A DNA stretch of 5,594 nucleotides from a virus (IMGVR_UViG_2663762627_000005:1-5594); one strand, 5' to 3'. Numbered from the stretch's first letter, positions 1 through 5,594 are shown. Translations and numbers: made by a program. The notes: generated by a model from the letters alone, not told the origin.

Positions 1-441
1 GATTACGAAATTATGCCGCCTTTTCGCCAGTTGTCGCGCCGCACGGTGCTGCTCACACCAAAAGAATCTACCTGAACGATCAAGCGCACGGTTTTTTATC
101 ATCTCAGGCTGGTTTTTAATCCCCATCAGCTCCGGTGCTAGTGCAGCGGCCAGTTCTGCACCGTTCTGCTGCATAAAATCATGCAGTCGGTTACGGATGC
201 TGATGCGTTGCACCTCCTCATGTGAGCGGATATAGCGACCGGCGGCCTGATTAATCTCCCATTTTTTTATATCGATGAGCTCACGCAGCATCTGTAAGCA
301 GCGGGAACCCGTTGCATTGTCATCTAGCAATAATTCCTGATATTCCTGCATTGCGGCGGCCAGTTCGGTTTTACGGTTCAGCCACACGGTTTTGTTCGTC
401 TGACAGGCGTCACAGGCCTGCTGTAAGGTCAGAGTGGTCAC
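1..441 (-). CDS. psu: Psu-like polarity suppression / capsid decoration protein, 5' part only (147 codons; 3' end lies beyond the left edge)
   Basis: Reverse-strand frame open from GTG at 441-439 to position 1 with no stop. SD-like AGGAGAG sits 7 nt upstream (on the minus strand). Translation (VTTLTLQQACDACQTNKTVWLNRKTELAAAMQEYQELL...KWEINQAAGRYIRSHEEVQRISIRNRLHDFMQQNGAELAAALAPELMG) closely matches P4 Psu as I recall it. Third gene of the sid-delta-psu order. Not in the supplied ORF track because it is edge-truncated and GTG-initiated. Confidence 0.8.
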   Translation of the reverse strand, partial: MTTLTLQQACDACQTNKTVWLNRKTELAAAMQEYQELLLDDNATGSRCLQMLRELIDIKKWEINQAAGRYIRSHEEVQRISIRNRLHDFMQQNGAELAAALAPELMGIKNQPEMIKNRALDRSGRFFWCEQHRAARQLAKRRHNFVI

Positions 442-457
442 GGGTTGTCTCTCCTGA

Positions 458-703
458 TTAATGGCAGAACGGCGAGCTGTAGCAGCCTTTTACCCGACGG
501 GGTGCCACGGGGGCTGTCGGCACCGGCGCGGGTTTCTCATCGACGACCGGCGAACGTATCACTTCAAAGATGGACTCATGCGTTTTAAATGTCGCCGAGC
601 AGTGCACATTCTGGCACTGCAGGTAACTCTCTTTGACGCTGTCAGACATATAGCGGCTGGTGCGAACGTGTGCCGCCGTGCGGCAGAAAGGGCAGCGCAT
701 CAT
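458..703 (-). CDS. delta: Ogr/Delta-family zinc-finger late transcription activator (81 aa)
   Basis: ORF MMRCPFCRTAAHVRTSRYMSDSVKESYLQCQNVHCSATF... carries the Cys4 pattern C-x2-C-x22-C-x4-C and strong similarity to P2 Ogr (MFHCPLCQHAAHARTSRYI...QCQNVNCSATF). Its ATG overlaps the stop of the upstream gene (ATGA, translational coupling). Confidence 0.88.
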   Translation of the reverse strand: MMRCPFCRTAAHVRTSRYMSDSVKESYLQCQNVHCSATFKTHESIFEVIRSPVVDEKPAPVPTAPVAPRRVKGCYSSPFCH

Positions 704-1437
704 GACAATAACCCCCGAGCCTTCAGGTCAGCTTCACGTTCCTGCATTTTTTCCTGCCAGACTTTTCGCTGAACGGGAGTGGCCGCAACGTCATGCTCCA
801 TATGCGGCAGCGTGGAGGCCGACAGTCCTGTTTTAAACAGCACCGGTTCATCGGTCAGACGGATATCGCAGCCTTTCACCGCCTGCTCAAGTCGGTCTTT
901 CACCTGCTGCATAACGGCCTGTTCTGGCTGGATATAGCCCTGATGCCCGGTGGTATTGGCAAGCGGGTTATTAAGAACCAGTATGTTGAGTTTCATTGCC
1001 CTGACCAGCGCGCTACAGGTATCACGCAGGGCAACATCGAGCTCATGCTCTGCATACTGGCTGAGGACGCTGTAATGTGCCTGACGGTACGCTCTGGCCG
1101 TCCGGTCACAGACTCCCTTAAGGCTGTCCAGCTCAAAAGACAGAACCTCAGCCATATTGTCACATTCCTGCGCCAGTTCCCGCCGTGCCACGCGCGCCAG
1201 ATGGCGTTGTTTCAGCTCGTCGGTAACGACAGCACCACCGGCACGAAAGGCGGCGCGCCATGCGCCGGAATCATTGCCGTTTTCCTGCTCCAGTTCATTT
1301 TTTTGCGTTTGCACCTGGCTGATGGCCGTCGTGGTTTCATCCATACGGCTGGCATTGGCGAGATGCGCCGAGCGGGCAGTCTCAAGGCGTTCCATTGCAG
1401 GTTTAAGGTAGTCGGGAATAACAGCGGTCTGAGTCAT
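700..1437 (-). CDS. sid: Sid-like protein (capsid size determination / external scaffold), 245 aa; assignment by synteny and size
   Basis: First gene downstream of the Delta-type promoter box, followed by delta and psu as in P4. The ATG at 1437-1435 is preceded by GAGGAGA with a 6-nt spacer; the longer track ORF (to 1503) has no SD and would start inside the promoter. 245 aa is close to P4 Sid. Sequence identity to Sid not verified. Confidence 0.6.
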   Translation of the reverse strand: MTQTAVIPDYLKPAMERLETARSAHLANASRMDETTTAISQVQTQKNELEQENGNDSGAWRAAFRAGGAVVTDELKQRHLARVARRELAQECDNMAEVLSFELDSLKGVCDRTARAYRQAHYSVLSQYAEHELDVALRDTCSALVRAMKLNILVLNNPLANTTGHQGYIQPEQAVMQQVKDRLEQAVKGCDIRLTDEPVLFKTGLSASTLPHMEHDVAATPVQRKVWQEKMQEREADLKARGLLS

Positions 1438-1469
1438 GTCGGGTCTCCTCTTCGTTTCAATCTGAGGAG

Positions 1470-1528
1470 ATTCTGCCGCGCCAGACACAACAACACGATT
1501 CATTGGCGTTGTGGCAAAAATGACACAA
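1470..1528 (-). promoter_or_regulatory. Psid-like late promoter: TGT-N12-ACA dyad (1511-1528) plus candidate -10 CAGAAT (1475-1470, minus strand)
   Basis: Exact TGTggcaaaaatgacACA at 1511-1528. The dyad centre is about 55-57 bp upstream of the predicted start site and about 80 bp upstream of the sid ATG, the geometry of Ogr/Delta-activated P2/P4 late promoters. Confidence 0.6.
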
Positions 1529-1613
1529 ACAGACCTTAAAACCCGGCTGGCCAGAGAAAGGTCTCAGGAAACCCTTACTCACTGTTTGTTTTTTTACTAA
1601 TAACTATTCACTA

Positions 1614-1708
1614 CTGTTCACCTTAAGAAAAAAGATAAGTAATACAGTTAATTAAAGGGTGAACAGTTGAAGGTCTGACTGTTCACCGTCTGTTCACCAC
1701 TGTTCACC
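1614..1708. repeat. Cluster of five CTGTTCACC repeats (P4 type I iteron core TGTTCACC); crr-like alpha-binding region
   Basis: Direct copies at 1614-1622, 1679-1687, 1690-1698 and 1700-1708 (the last three phased at 11 and 10 bp), plus an inverted copy GGTGAACAG at 1658-1666. The octamer TGTTCACC is the alpha-protein binding iteron of P4 ori and crr. Confidence 0.7.
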
Positions 1709-1790
1709 CTTCTGTTTTTCTCTGCCGATACCTTTAGACTTTATTTCGATTAAAAATCAAAAATATATAACTAAAAGAAATAGAAATTGC

Positions 1791-1844
1791 TGCATTGTAA
1801 TGCAGTGATTTGCATCTGTTTGCCAGCGTTTGCCTTTGTTTGCC
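1791..1844 (+). promoter_or_regulatory. Candidate operator/PLL-region elements: perfect palindrome TGCATTGTAATGCA and three GTTTGCC direct repeats phased at exactly 10 bp
   Basis: Palindrome at 1791-1804. GTTTGCC at 1818-1824, 1828-1834 and 1838-1844. Lies 130-180 bp upstream of the vis/alpA start, with an AT-rich tract (1740-1790) just upstream. Confidence 0.4.
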
Positions 1845-1973
1845 ATAGCGAAAAGTCAATGTTTGTTTCCACGAAAATCTCACATGACCTGAGGAAAAAT
1901 ATAGACATAATAAGGAGCTACCCGAAGCCGGACGGACACGACCGGCACCGTATGGACTTTATGAGGTAGCCCG

Positions 1974-2240
1974 ATGCACACCGCTTTTTCTTCCCCGTCT
2001 TCTGCCCCTGCCGCGCCGCTGATGCCGGTCTCTGACGCCGTTCATGAGCGTTTTATTCGTCTGCCTGAAGTGATGCATTTATGCGGCCTGTCTCGTTCGA
2101 CCATTTATGACCTCATCAGCCGGGAAGCTTTCCCGAAGCAAATCTCCCTCGGCGGTAAAAACGTGGCGTGGGCGCAGTCTGAAATCACCGCATGGATGGC
2201 GGATCGCATTGCCGAACGTAACCGGGGTTATGACGCATGA
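1974..2240 (+). CDS. vis: AlpA/Vis-family small DNA-binding regulator (88 aa), MerR-like HTH
   Basis: ATG at 1974 with GAGG 7 nt upstream. The protein contains [50 protein letters not shown], characteristic of prophage AlpA/Vis/excisionase-like regulators. Same size (88 aa) and position as P4 vis (orf88) as I recall. Confidence 0.85.
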
Positions 2241-2788
2241 TGATGACCGTTCAGCAAACAGCCCCTTTTTCTGGCTTGCTTCTTTTCATCGTTTCCAGGT
2301 ATAGTTTTCCCGCTGCCGCAAAATCGGCAGCCGGGCGTAGGAACCCGAGTTACTTATTGGCGACACCAGACGCGCCATGCGTCTTTTTTTACGTCGTTGC
2401 TCAGGCACACCCATTTTCCGGGCTGTGGTGCTTATACCTTAGCCCCTGTCAGATAATGGTGGTCCGGGCGGGGCAGCCTTCGGGCTGGCCGGTTTCCAAT
2501 AAGGCCGGTATTCCTACCCCCGTTCGGGTCACCACCCATGAGCGTAGGAACTCCGGTGGTGGCAATTACCGCTACTTATTGGAGGTTGCCGCTATGGCTA
2601 CGACCCTCACCCTGCCACACCCGCAGTTTGTCTTTGTGTTTGCCGCCGTTCGTCGCGCAGACCGTAAACCCCGTATCTGTATGCTTCGCACCGTTGCCGG
2701 TGATGAACACGCTGCACGTCTTTCCCTCGTTCGCGATTATGTCCTCTCGTTCGCTGGCCGTCTGCCGGTTGCGGAGGTGTGCGCATGA
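2237..2788 (+). CDS. eta: Eta-like long ORF (183 aa) whose terminal part is kil; starts with three consecutive ATG codons and reads through seqA, the CI-like RNA and seqC
   Basis: About 119 codons stay open across a region that is clearly an RNA regulatory locus, in frame with kil. The start overlaps the vis stop (ATGA) and is followed by ATGATG. This matches the P4 description of eta as a nested ORF beginning upstream of PLE with three possible start codons. Whether it is translated is untested. Confidence 0.45.
2276..2305 (+). promoter_or_regulatory. Sigma70-type promoter, PLE-like: -35 TTGCTT (2276-2281), 18-bp spacer, -10 TATAGT (2300-2305)
   Basis: Good hexamers with correct spacing. 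Placed just upstream of seqA and the CI-like RNA and just inside the eta ORF, as expected for the constitutive early promoter of a P4-type left operon. Confidence 0.55.
2335..2361 (+). promoter_or_regulatory. seqA-like target of the immunity RNA (GTAGGAA ... CTTATTGG)
   Basis: GCGTAGGAACccgagttaCTTATTGG is complementary in two blocks to the seqB segment of the downstream RNA (CCAATAAG ... TTCCTAC at 2496-2517). Confidence 0.65.
2368..2390 (+). terminator. Intrinsic-terminator-like hairpin (AGACGC / gccat loop / GCGTCT) followed by a T7 tract
   Basis: 6-bp stem at 2368-2373 and 2379-2384 with a T run at 2384-2390, immediately downstream of seqA in the leader. Orientation-specific: there is no U-tract on the other strand. 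Confidence 0.4.
2455..2537 (+). ncRNA. cI: CI-like immunity RNA (about 80 nt) carrying seqB; boundaries approximate
   Basis: A terminal helix can form between GGUGGUCCGGGCGGGG (2458-2473) and CCCCCGUUCGGGUCACCACC (2517-2536). Internal hairpin CAGCC-UUCG-GGCUG (2474-2488). The seqB segment CCAATAAGgccggtaTTCCTAC (2496-2517) is complementary to both seqA and seqC. P4 CI RNA is a processed leader RNA of about 79 nt. Confidence 0.6.
2541..2585 (+). promoter_or_regulatory. seqC-like target of the immunity RNA, overlapping the kil Shine-Dalgarno
   Basis: AGCGTAGGAAC (2541-2551) and CTTATTGG (2575-2582) repeat the seqA blocks. The GGAGG SD of kil is at 2581-2585, so CI/seqC pairing would occlude the kil ribosome-binding site. 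Confidence 0.6.
2594..2788 (+). CDS. kil: Kil-like small protein (64 aa), first translated gene downstream of the PLE-like promoter
   Basis: ATG at 2594 with GGAGG 8 nt upstream. 64 codons ([64 protein letters not shown]). P4 kil is 65 aa at the same position. Function inferred from position only. Confidence 0.6.
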
Positions 2789-3012
2789 GACACACCACCA
2801 TTACTGCCCGTGACCTCGAATGCCTTGAACATATGCGCAACGTCGGTCAGCTCGTCAGCGAACTGATGCAGGTGCAGGACTGTGCCACTGTTCGCCGTGA
2901 CCCGGCGCAGCAGTTACAGCTCACCTCCGTGATTTACCTTATGACCGCCCAGCTCGACGGCATGGTCGAACGCTGCAATCAGCACTGGCTGACCGGGGAG
3001 GACAACGTATGA
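2785..3012 (+). CDS. Hypothetical small protein (75 aa from ATG 2785; the track's GTG 2779 start gives 77 aa)
   Basis: GGAGG at 2773-2777 is 7 nt upstream of ATG 2785. The ATG overlaps the kil stop (ATGA). No recognisable motif. Occupies the slot where P4 carries small left-operon genes such as eps. Confidence 0.6.
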
Positions 3013-3329
3013 AACAGCCATTACCGCCCGTATTACGCGCCGCGCTCTATCGCCGTGCAGTGGCCTGTGCCTGGCTGACCCTGTGCGAACGCCAGCACCG
3101 TTACCCGCGCCTCACCCTTGACGCGCTGGAAAGCGCCATTGCTGCCGAGCTGGAGGGCTTCTACCTGCGCCAGCATGGAGAGGAAAAAGGTCGCCAGATT
3201 GCCTGTGCACTGCTCGAAGATTTAATGGAAGCCGGACCACTGAAAGCTGCCCCGTCGCTGTCCTTCCTCGGGCTCGCGGTGATGGATGAACTTTGCGCCC
3301 GCCATATCACCGCACCGGTACTGCACTGA
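3009..3329 (+). CDS. Hypothetical protein (106 aa), translationally coupled to the upstream ORF
   Basis: GGGGAGG at 2995-3001 is 7 nt upstream of ATG 3009. The ATG overlaps the upstream stop (ATGA). The ORF ends 14 nt before the primase start. No recognisable motif. Confidence 0.65.
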
Positions 3330-3343
3330 GGGAGAAAATAACA

Positions 3344-5440
3344 ATGAAAATGAACGTAACGGAAACCGTAAAACAGGCGTGCGGTCACTGGCCGCGTATT
3401 CTCCCGGCGCTGGGTGTGAAGGTGATTAAAAACCGGCATCAGGCCTGTCCGGTGTGCGGCGGCTCTGACCGCTTTCGCTTTGACGATAAAGAGGGGCGCG
3501 GGACGTGGTACTGCAATCAGTGCGGCGCGGGTGACGGGCTTAAGCTGGTCGAAAAGGTGTTCGGTGTAAATCCGTCTGAGGCCGCCCGGAAGGTGAACGC
3601 CGTCACCGGTAATCTGTCGCCGGTTGCCCCGGAAGCGATTGCGGCCGCAGAAGCCGGAACCGATGCCGACCTCCAGGCGGCGGCCGCGCTGGCCGTCAGG
3701 CTCATGGAGAAAACCCGCCCGGCCACCGGCAACGCCTACCTCACCCGCAAGGGTTTCCCCGACCGGGAATGTCTGATGCTCACAGCCATACATAAAACCG
3801 GCGGCGTGACGTTCCGCGCCGGTGATGTGGTTGTCCCGCTGTATGACGATACCGGGGCGCTGGTTAACGTTCAGCTTATTAATGCTGATGGTCTCAAACG
3901 CACCCTGAAAGGCGGTCAGGTCAAAGGGGCATGTCATATCATCGAGGGGCAGAAACAGCCCGGAAAACGCCTGTGGATTGCGGAGGGTTATGCGACCGCG
4001 CTCACCGTGCATCAACTGACCGGCGAAACCGTCATGGTGGCGCTGTCCTCCGTGAACCTCCTTTCTCTGGCGAGCCTTGCCCGTCAGAAGTCCCCGGCCT
4101 GTCAGATTGTCCTCGCCGCCGACCGTGACCTTAACGGCGACGGCCAGAACAAAGCCGCAGCGGCCGCAGGAGCCTGCGAGGGCATTGTTGCCCTGCCACC
4201 GGTGTTCGGTGACTGGAATGATGCGTTTATAGAAAAAGGTGAGGAAGCCACGCGGAAAGCCATTCATAACGCCATCCGGCCACCGGCACAAAGTCCGTTC
4301 GACACCATGAGCGAGGCGGAATTTACCGCCATGAGCGCCAGCGACAAGGCGATGCGGGTGCATGAGCATTACGGCGAAGCGCTGGCTGTGGACGCGAACG
4401 GCCAGCTTCTGTCCCGCTATGAAAACGGCATCTGGAAAAATATCCCTGCCGCCACTTTTTCACGAAATGTTGCTGATTTATTCCGGCGCGTGCGTGCCCC
4501 GTTCTCGTCGGGGAGAATCACCTCAGTGGTGGAGACGCTGAAGCTGATTATTCCTCAGCAGGAGGCACCGGCGCGCCGTCTGATTGGTTTTCGCAACGGG
4601 GTACTTGATACCCAAAGCGGCCTGTTCAGCCCGCACAGTAAATCACACTGGCTGCGCACGCTGTGCGACGTGGATTTTACCCCGCCGGTGGAAGGGGAAA
4701 CGCTGGAGACCCACGCGCCAAACTTCTGGCGCTGGCTCGACCGTGCCGCCGGTGGCAGACCGGAAAAACGCGACGTGATACTTGCCGCGCTGTTTATGGT
4801 GCTGGCGAACCGCTACGACTGGCAGCTCTTTCTCGAAGTCACCGGTCCCGGCGGAAGCGGTAAAAGTATTCTCGCCGAAATCGCGACCCTGCTCGCCGGA
4901 GAGGATAACGCCACGTCAGCCGATATCGACACACTGGAAGACCCGCGCAAGCGCGCATCCCTGACTGGTTTCTCGCTAATCCGTCTGCCTGACCAGGAAA
5001 AATGGAGCGGTGACGGGGCAGGACTCAAAGCCATCACCGGCGGCGATGCGGTCTCAGTTGACCCGAAATACCAGAACCCGTACTCAACACATATTCCGGC
5101 GGTGATTCTGGCCGTGAACAATAACCCGATGCGCTTCACTGACCGCAGCGGCGGTGTGTCACGCCGCCGGGTGATTATTCATTTCCCGGAGCAGATTGCC
5201 CCGGAGGAACGCGACCCGCAGCTCAGGGATAAAATTGCGCGCGAGCTGGCCGTTATCGTGCGCCAGCTTATGCAGAAATTCAGCGACCCGATGGCAGCGC
5301 GCACTCTGCTCCAGTCGCAGCAGAACTCCGATGAAGCGCTCAGCATCAAGCGTGATGCTGACCCGACGTTTGATTTTTGTGGCTATCTGGAAATGCTGCC
5401 GCAGACCAACGGGATGTTGGTAATGGTGCCAACTTACTGA
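3344..5440 (+). CDS. alpha: P4 alpha-type primase-helicase, C-terminus apparently replaced by IS1-derived codons (native codons end near 5418)
   Basis: Start ATG 3344 (MKMNVTETV...) with GAGGGAG upstream; the track's earlier ATG 3293 lies inside the preceding gene. Zinc-ribbon CPVCGG...WYCNQCG, primase EGYATA motif, TOPRIM-like AADRDLNGDG, and Walker A GPGGSGKS (about 4844-4867). The last 7 codons and the stop (5420-5440) lie inside the IS1 terminal inverted repeat. 699 aa versus about 777 aa for P4 alpha. Confidence 0.88.
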   Translation: MKMNVTETVKQACGHWPRILPALGVKVIKNRHQACPVCGGSDRFRFDDKEGRGTWYCNQCGAGDGLKLVEKVFGVNPSEAARKVNAVTGNLSPVAPEAIAAAEAGTDADLQAAAALAVRLMEKTRPATGNAYLTRKGFPDRECLMLTAIHKTGGVTFRAGDVVVPLYDDTGALVNVQLINADGLKRTLKGGQVKGACHIIEGQKQPGKRLWIAEGYATALTVHQLTGETVMVALSSVNLLSLASLARQKSPACQIVLAADRDLNGDGQNKAAAAAGACEGIVALPPVFGDWNDAFIEKGEEATRKAIHNAIRPPAQSPFDTMSEAEFTAMSASDKAMRVHEHYGEALAVDANGQLLSRYENGIWKNIPAATFSRNVADLFRRVRAPFSSGRITSVVETLKLIIPQQEAPARRLIGFRNGVLDTQSGLFSPHSKSHWLRTLCDVDFTPPVEGETLETHAPNFWRWLDRAAGGRPEKRDVILAALFMVLANRYDWQLFLEVTGPGGSGKSILAEIATLLAGEDNATSADIDTLEDPRKRASLTGFSLIRLPDQEKWSGDGAGLKAITGGDAVSVDPKYQNPYSTHIPAVILAVNNNPMRFTDRSGGVSRRRVIIHFPEQIAPEERDPQLRDKIARELAVIVRQLMQKFSDPMAARTLLQSQQNSDEALSIKRDADPTFDFCGYLEMLPQTNGMLVMVPTY

Positions 5441-5594
5441 TTTAGTGTATCATGGTGTTTTTGAGGTGCTCCCGTGGCTTCCATCTCCATCAGTTGTCCC
5501 TCCTGCTCAGCTACTGAAGGCGTGGTGCGTAACGGTAAAAGTACTGCCGGACATCAGCGCTATCTCTGCTCTCACTGCCGTAAAACATGGCAAC
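5419..5594 (+). mobile_element. IS1 insertion sequence, left end (terminal inverted repeat GGTAATGGTGCCAACTTACTGAT) and start of insA; continues beyond the window
   Basis: 5419-5441 matches the IS1 terminal inverted repeat apart from a few variant positions, followed by the characteristic TTTAGTGTAT...GGTGTTTTTGAGGTGCTCC leader and insA. Confidence 0.9.
5474..5594 (+). CDS. insA: IS1 InsA (transposition repressor / N-terminal transposase part), 5' portion only
   Basis: GTG start at 5474. Translation (V/M)[39 protein letters not shown] matches the InsA N-terminus (zinc-finger CPSC...CSHC). ORF runs off the right edge. Confidence 0.9.

Follow-up and report, generated by a model that had tools for sequence, protein, structure and literature searches.

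A stretch of Escherichia coli DNA carrying the probable core of a P4-like satellite, with its RNA immunity locus and an alpha gene interrupted by IS1

Gene content and comparison with P4

The window considered here, the whole 5,594-nucleotide viral stretch IMGVR_UViG_2663762627_000005:1-5594, carries two divergent sets of genes that resemble those of the satellite P4, and we consider it very probable that it represents the conserved core of a P4-like satellite residing in an Escherichia coli chromosome, most likely at the transfer-messenger RNA (tmRNA) gene ssrA. In tblastn searches, all open reading frames (ORFs) of the window except orf75 were colinear with P4 (NC_001609 / X51522), with psu-delta-sid, the replication origin (ori) and vis-eta/kil-cI-cnr-alpha in the same order and on the same strands, at 58-92% protein identity; the first-pass annotation of the window had foreseen such an alignment. 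The markers of the P4-like family, namely Psu, Delta, Sid, AlpA, PF10554 and Alpha, are all present, and they follow the gene order found in most of its members (Moura de Sousa and Rocha, PMC8628076). Closely matching copies, hereafter sister copies, were found by blastn in the drafts L005 and L006 (99.96-99.98% identity) and in the complete genomes of strains PSS-16 (99.8%) and AF14 (99.6%). The genes of the window are as follows.

441..65, minus strand: psu, polarity suppression and capsid decoration; GTG start at 441; partial, codons 1 to about 125 of 188
703..458, minus strand: delta, Ogr/Delta zinc-finger late-gene transactivator, 81 amino acids (aa); PF04606, E=5.2e-21
1437..700, minus strand: sid, capsid size-determining external scaffold, 245 aa; ORF open up to 1503
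1974-2240, plus strand: vis/alpA, excisionase and transcriptional regulator, 88 aa; PF05930 Phage_AlpA, E=3e-20
2237-2788, plus strand: eta, 183 aa, spanning the RNA locus; PF10554, E=1.4e-31
2594-2788, plus strand: kil, Icd-like division inhibitor, the final 64 codons of eta; NF033153 phage_ICD_like, E=3e-22
2785-3012, plus strand: orf75, 75 aa; phrog_10110, E=1.3e-44
3009-3329, plus strand: orf106, the cnr copy-number regulator (DUF5375); PF17345, E=4.5e-65
3344..5418, plus strand: alpha, primase-helicase, residues 1-691 of 777; Zn-ribbon, Toprim, D5_N and DUF5906 domains

In the late operon, psu is 59% identical to P4 Psu at the protein level (tblastn), and its product covers positions 1-121 of the 182 in Pfam profile PF07455 (E=9.8e-54). 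The gene is short by about 62 codons because the left join of the contig is most likely an assembly artefact, as discussed below; a complete 188-aa psu is present in sister copies (e.g., L005), and the full sister protein matches PDB 3rx6 with E=2.9e-68. The 81-aa Delta aligns separately to either half of the 166-aa P4 Delta and is therefore a single unit, whereas P4 Delta is a tandem. The sid ATG at 1437 is preceded by a GAGGAGA ribosome-binding site, and the protein is 65% identical to P4 Sid (tblastn), matching the P4 Sid structure PDB 7jw1_E over residues 6-245 (E=7.4e-99) as well as phrog_6165 (E=1e-107). Both phrog_6165 and the RefSeq P4 record (NC_001609.1 9583-10317) label Sid 'polarity suppression Psu-like by overcoming Rho'; this 'Psu-like' label is an annotation slip, liable to propagate.

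On the other strand, tblastn identities to the P4 counterparts are 70% for vis (P4 ORF88), 58% for eta, 84% for kil, 92% for orf106 (P4 ORF106) and 83% over 693 residues for alpha. Vis falls in the Pfam family named after AlpA of CP4-57, a cryptic prophage of E. coli K-12. Linkage of several genes by ATGA stop/start overlaps, noticed in the first-pass annotation, was confirmed base by base at four places: sid/delta (700-703), vis/eta (2237-2240), eta/orf75 (2785-2788) and orf75/orf106 (3009-3012). Two genes of P4, epsilon and orf151, are missing from the window as judged by tblastn and BLASTP. For its part, orf75 has no match in P4 by tblastn and gave empty BLASTP comparisons with P4 epsilon and orf151. 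A 75-aa protein family that is missing from P4 itself has been reported in 61% of P4-like elements, and cnr in 90% (PMC8628076); orf75 and orf106 fit these two families. A single-sequence model of orf75 is a two-helix hairpin (predicted local distance difference test, pLDDT, 85.8) with no match in BFVD at E<=0.001, and the fold is accordingly generic and uninformative. The idea that orf75 is a plain replacement for epsilon was rejected: in strain E66 (L011 4709-4969), a 71%-identical homologue shares its element with both epsilon and orf151.

Measured against the P4-like family as a whole, the element shares the marker set, the majority gene order, the 75-aa family and cnr, and nothing categorical sets it apart; the copy in the window is partial, being a contig, and its alpha is broken. 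The PF10554 marker, termed 'epsilon' in the family study (PMC8628076), matches the eta ORF and not the 95-aa epsilon of P4. The first-pass annotation, which had described a P4-type satellite core at 1-5440, its operons diverging from a common control region and including a cI locus, was thus borne out by homology, Rfam and alignment, with some corrections. The satellite DNA within the window runs from 65 to 5418, since positions 1-64 are not satellite and the alpha sequence ends at 5418; the order and strands of the genes mirror P4, but delta is a single 81-aa unit and two P4 genes are missing; and the small ORFs placed before alpha are orf75 and cnr, not epsilon and orf151.

Origin, promoters and RNA immunity locus

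The 536-bp divergent region between sid and vis (1438-1973) can be aligned with P4. This region and the beginning of the early operon hold the following elements.

1510..1527, no strand assigned: TGT-N12-ACA dyad upstream of sid, candidate Delta/Ogr site of Psid; exact pattern match
1606..1708, no strand assigned: type-1 ori iterons TGTTCACC, alpha-binding by P4 homology; exact at 1615, 1658 (minus strand), 1680, 1691 and 1701, degenerate at 1606
1809..1845, no strand assigned: TTTGCC-containing repeats with a 10-bp period, corresponding by position only to the P4 ori type-2 repeats
2276..2305, plus strand: candidate PLE promoter (TTGCTT, 18-nucleotide spacer, TATAGT); TATAGT at 2300-2305 aligns to the P4 'consensus -10' (X02534 2367-2372)
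2299..2389, plus strand: early-operon leader; Rfam isrK, 75.9 bits, and c4-a1b1, 50.1 bits
2335-2344 and 2351-2360, plus strand: seqA targets GCGTAGGAAC and TACTTATTGG; from repeats and complementarity
2368-2384, plus strand: terminator hairpin, then a T run; from a terminator scan
2452..2539, plus strand: CI immunity RNA (C4 antisense RNA family); Rfam RF01695, 83.4 bits, E=5.8e-16, full length
2542-2551 and 2573-2582 (region 2542..2583), plus strand: seqC targets GCGTAGGAAC and TACTTATTGG; from direct and inverted repeats

The origin is marked by the iterons: five exact copies of TGTTCACC were found where 0.14 were expected, and their order and orientation are those of the annotated type-1 repeats of the P4 ori. 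In the P4 annotation, the type-2 repeats are three of 10 bp. The inverted TGTTCACC iterons also produced an Rfam match to let-7 at 1643-1724, which reached 26.6 bits, far short of the gathering score (53.5), and was dismissed as spurious and not an RNA gene. A tRNA scan of the window found none.

The pattern TGT-N12-ACA is the consensus of Ogr/Delta sites. In the window it is not enriched, with two exact matches against 1.1 expected and 25 against 22 when one mismatch is allowed, and for that reason we infer, rather than read off, a function for the dyad at 1510-1527. Among the matches, this one alone is supported, through positional conservation: it aligns to the position of TGTGCCAGCCCTGACACA in P4. 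The -10 of the candidate PLE promoter is likewise shared with P4. For PLL no confident placement could be made, the single sigma-70-like match at 1884-1911 being at chance level.

The RNA immunity locus is laid out as in P4. The isrK, c4-a1b1 and CI RNA matches each exceed their Rfam gathering thresholds (45 for RF01695), and the CI RNA has a predicted fold energy of -47.2 kcal/mol (z=-3.25). Two of its segments, 2495-2503 and 2505-2522, show complementarity to seqA and seqC, two-part elements at 2332-2360 and 2542-2583 that flank the CI RNA on the same transcript. The second seqC element, read as CTTATTGGAGG, extends into the Shine-Dalgarno sequence of kil (2581-2585, GGAGG ahead of the kil ATG). 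In P4, pairing of the CI RNA with seqA and seqC leads to premature termination of the replication operon, and IsrK is a structural homologue of the P4 SeqA RNA (PMC4825925). Related modules occur in the c4-icd-ant loci of P1/P7 and with IsrK in Salmonella Gifsy-1, which share with the window the C4 clan CL00128, the a1/b1 targets, isrK and an Icd-like protein downstream. In those full phages, however, the modules control antirepressor or anti-Q-type genes, while here the module sits in the replication operon of a satellite.

Most of the ORF at 2237-2788 overlaps seqA-CI RNA-seqC, and only its final 64 codons, kil, are clearly conserved at the protein level. Several labels attached to this ORF are misleading, including 'Ash' in Pfam, 'transcriptional repressor' in PHROG and the 'epsilon' marker PF10554 (PMC8628076). 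The nesting of kil in eta is reportedly a feature of P4 as well, and kil translation is reported to counteract termination there (Forti and colleagues, 1999).

From homology with P4, the following scheme may be proposed. In the repressed state, a constitutive PLE at the candidate site would transcribe the leader, which would be processed to CI RNA; this RNA would pair with the two-part seqA upstream and seqC downstream on nascent transcripts. Because the seqC target overlaps the ribosome-binding site of kil, kil translation would be blocked as well, and the early stop of transcription would keep kil, orf75, cnr and alpha off. With a P2-type helper active, Delta together with the Ogr of the helper would fire Psid and PLL, Vis would promote excision, and translation of eta on PLL transcripts would override termination. 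Alpha, acting at the iteron origin (1606-1708) and with crr, would replicate the element, while Sid would push the capsid protein of the helper into small capsids, which Psu would decorate in addition to inhibiting Rho. Promoter activity and the mechanism of termination are thus proposed from homology; the homology itself, the gene order, the family membership of the RNAs, their complementarity, the iterons and the IS1 breakpoint are observed directly.

The IS1 insertion in alpha and the left end of the contig

Both ends of the satellite DNA in the window adjoin other sequences.

1..59, plus strand: fragment of yehI, an E. coli core gene, outside the satellite; 59/59 identity in 4426 E. coli genomes
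60..64, no strand assigned: yehI/psu joint; N at 60, 61 and 63 in the deposited contig
5410-5418, no strand assigned: 9-bp IS1 target CGGGATGTT, duplicated around IS1A in AF14
5419..5594, plus strand: left end of IS1, an inverted repeat and then insA from 5474; 91-93% identity to common IS1 copies
3399-3409, 4463, 5446-5448 and 7620 of another draft contig, CDRN01000070.1, no strand assigned: joints with N at each

On the right, alpha is interrupted by IS1, and the ORF runs on to a stop at 5440 because it reads into IS1 past 5418; InsA domains are called in draft L005. The breakpoint can be read exactly by comparison with sister copies: strain AF14, whose genome is complete, carries a 768-bp IS1A at the identical site, flanked by the 9-bp duplication CGGGATGTT, and in strain PSS-16 the site is without IS1 and alpha has 777 aa. 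The window shares its IS1 end with L005 and L006, and this end diverges by about 9% from the IS1A at the identical site in AF14 (L001 17353-18120). Gene conversion between IS1 copies, independent insertions at a hotspot, or a collapse of repeats in the draft assemblies could each account for the difference.

The origin-binding domain of P4 alpha, solved as PDB 1ka8, maps to residues 671-770 in the intact alpha of a sister copy, and the break after residue 691 takes off 79 of the 100 residues of this domain. Since IS1 cuts inside the origin-binding domain, the copy is probably replication-dead: judged from its sequence, it would be a decaying satellite that is unable to replicate by itself, with the remaining core intact. 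It is unlikely that the satellite still works or is transmitted despite IS1, whether because the truncated alpha is enough or because a further P4-like element in the same cell provides alpha in trans. Such activity would be in keeping with the intactness of the other core genes, which are 99.9% identical to the PSS-16 copy with its intact alpha, with the up to four matching places per E. coli genome, and with the presence of the same IS1-bearing allele in several assemblies, which shows that the allele persists. A dead prophage inherited vertically would, however, account just as well for persistence across strains, and the loss of most of the origin-binding domain speaks against function.

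The left end is of a different nature. The whole window is one complete draft contig, CDRR01000355.1 (assembly GCA_000940455.1), with the same bases except for 60, 61 and 63, where the deposit has N and the window A; its left and right ends are therefore the ends of an assembly. Homology to psu begins at 65, and the five bases between yehI and psu hold all three Ns. Base 71 is an additional C relative to all four independent sister copies. The yehI-psu junction has no match in any complete E. coli genome, and the exact junction string has none in the representative genomes of GTDB. Moreover, CDRN01000070.1, a draft contig from this accession series, is pieced together from truncated fragments of unrelated genes with N at each joint, one of which enters the same satellite at a place equivalent to window position 1453; assemblies of this series appear to contain chimeric contigs.

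We conclude that the yehI piece is very probably an artefact of assembly, scaffolding or gap filling, and no evidence for a satellite lacking its left arm. A genuine junction would make the element a stranded remnant, cut in psu by a chromosomal rearrangement and in alpha by IS1, and devoid of cos, cargo and integrase. In its favor, yehI sequence of 100% identity at 1-59 abuts psu at about codon 125 within a single contig, and rearrangements do occur in genomes rich in insertion sequences (IS). We nevertheless judge it very improbable, given the Ns and the additional C at the joint, the N-marked patchwork of CDRN01000070.1 with its own joint to this element, the failure to find the junction in complete E. 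coli or GTDB representative genomes, and the whole left arm that drafts L005 and L006 possess together with the identical truncated alpha. On the K-12 map, the orientation would presumably also mean a deletion of some 0.5 Mb between yehI and ssrA, essential genes included. The first-pass annotation had held that flanks without int, cos or other P4-family genes would speak against a satellite. Taken literally, the left edge in yehI resembles that case; the N-marked joint makes an assembly artefact the most likely account of it.

Sister copies, hotspot cargo and significance

The sister copies show what would lie beyond the contig. From left to right they comprise ssrA, int, three cargo genes, an intergenic stretch of about 0.7 kb with cos, psu-delta-sid, vis to alpha, crr, attR and ypjA, in an element of about 10.3 kb. 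From this gene order in near-identical copies, int, cos, the cargo and attL are placed on the left, outside the window; on the other side, beyond IS1, the sister copies have only the C-terminus of alpha, crr, attR and ypjA. The integrase is a 399-aa tyrosine integrase adjoining ssrA, and in its size and its target it differs from that of P4. Within the intergenic stretch lies a region resembling P4 cos (77% identity over 188 bp), and in sister copy L002 the cos 19-mer GGCGTGGCGGGGAGAGCAT, which agrees with P4 cos at 16 of 19 positions, lies about 190 bp past the psu stop. Downstream of alpha there are crr-like repeats, a further feature shared with P4, and then an attR resembling the 3' end of ssrA. 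We take this location, ssrA with ypjA downstream, to be the site of CP4-57. That element is larger and heavily decayed and is not known to have an intact sid-delta-psu operon. The first-pass annotation had advised extending the sequence both ways for int, cos, a tRNA attachment site and cargo. In the sister copies all of these are on the left save attR, and the site is a tmRNA gene, not a tRNA gene.

Related sequence is present in 1889 of 5426 complete E. coli genomes (about 35%), with at least 80% query coverage in 161 of them. A plasmid-borne origin, named in the first-pass annotation as a case that would contradict it, would require either the plasmid state of P4, in which P4 can be maintained (PMC8628076), or carriage on another plasmid. 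This is scarcely conceivable here, as all but one of the 2446 matching places in complete genomes are chromosomal and the sister copies are located between ssrA and ypjA. The plasmid database holds a single record covering at least 80% of the query, and its length of 4.8 Mb identifies it as a mislabelled chromosome.

Several points weigh against the identification of the window as the core of a chromosomal P4-like satellite working as in P4. The literal left flank of the record is yehI, with no satellite DNA, and the record itself contains no integrase, cos, crr or att site, all of which are supplied from near-identical copies elsewhere. The true epsilon, the helper-derepression gene (P4 7888-8175), is absent from the window; epsilon is found in other E. 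coli elements, and the published definition of the family does not demand it. The promoters are positioned through alignment only, and PLE was missed by a generic sigma-70 scan of the window, the number of hits being no greater than in shuffled sequence. Finally, the roles given to eta and kil are carried over from the mechanism reported for P4 in the 1999 work.

In P4-like satellites, the region between psu and int is a known defense hotspot (Rousset et al., PMC9122126). The first-pass annotation had expected variable cargo just beyond psu on the left and nothing defensive inside the window, and both expectations held. The proteins of the window gave no match in PADLOC-DB 2.0 beyond two marginal helix-turn-helix matches for vis (E=0.001-0.003), and in near-identical complete copies the cargo follows ssrA and int and precedes cos and psu. 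The cassette, which occupies the psu-int hotspot of complete sister copies (L005 3924-5836), encodes three proteins in place of the gop-beta-cII cargo of P4.

Cargo protein 1, 368 aa: fusion of STAS and a SpoIIAB-like GHKL kinase
Cargo protein 2, 112 aa: DUF4325, STAS-like
Cargo protein 3, 166 aa: hydrophobic N-terminus, putative transmembrane segment

The 368-aa protein has the N, G1 and G2 box motifs of GHKL kinases in an alignment of 46 homologues. In its model (pLDDT 82.9), the C-terminal half matches SpoIIAB anti-sigma kinases with target-normalised TM-scores of 0.67-0.72, and the N-terminal half matches STAS anti-sigma antagonists. Pfam did not detect HATPase_c in it even at E<=10; the GHKL assignment comes from the conserved boxes and the SpoIIAB fold match. 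The same three genes adjoin an integrase near mutS in Pseudomonas aeruginosa (L013-L016 5001-6985). The cargo proteins, WP_016234813/4/5, appear in Table S1 of Rousset et al. as 'hypothetical + hypothetical + DUF4325', and the first of them appears in the ranked list of the same work as 'HATPase_c | DUF4325', apparently at rank 69 with 9 genomes (PMC9122126). The STAS/GHKL cassette is a catalogue entry only, no sign of a test of it having been found, and the cargo of the sister copies gave no PADLOC match. In a 2026 study, six of eight unannotated P4 hotspot loci were protective. It is possible, though somewhat less likely than not, that the cassette is an uncharacterised anti-phage system based on partner switching, with the logic of a kinase and an anti-sigma antagonist. 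It is in any case a reasonable but unproven defense candidate, located outside the contig of the window.

Nothing inside the window is new: the element is of a known kind and is effectively already known, being present and annotated in RefSeq genomes, with its cargo in a published hotspot catalogue. Some 25-33% of E. coli genomes contain P4-like satellites, and a further one carries little weight as a discovery. The first 64 bases, an N-marked join to an unrelated gene, mean that the ends of such a contig should not be taken as biology, and the defense-relevant part of the source satellite lies on another contig. What the analysis adds is the recognition of the left join as most likely an artefact, the exact IS1 breakpoint within the origin-binding domain of alpha, the finding that epsilon and orf151 are missing and that delta is a single unit, a full map of the RNA locus, and the identity and location of the missing arms.

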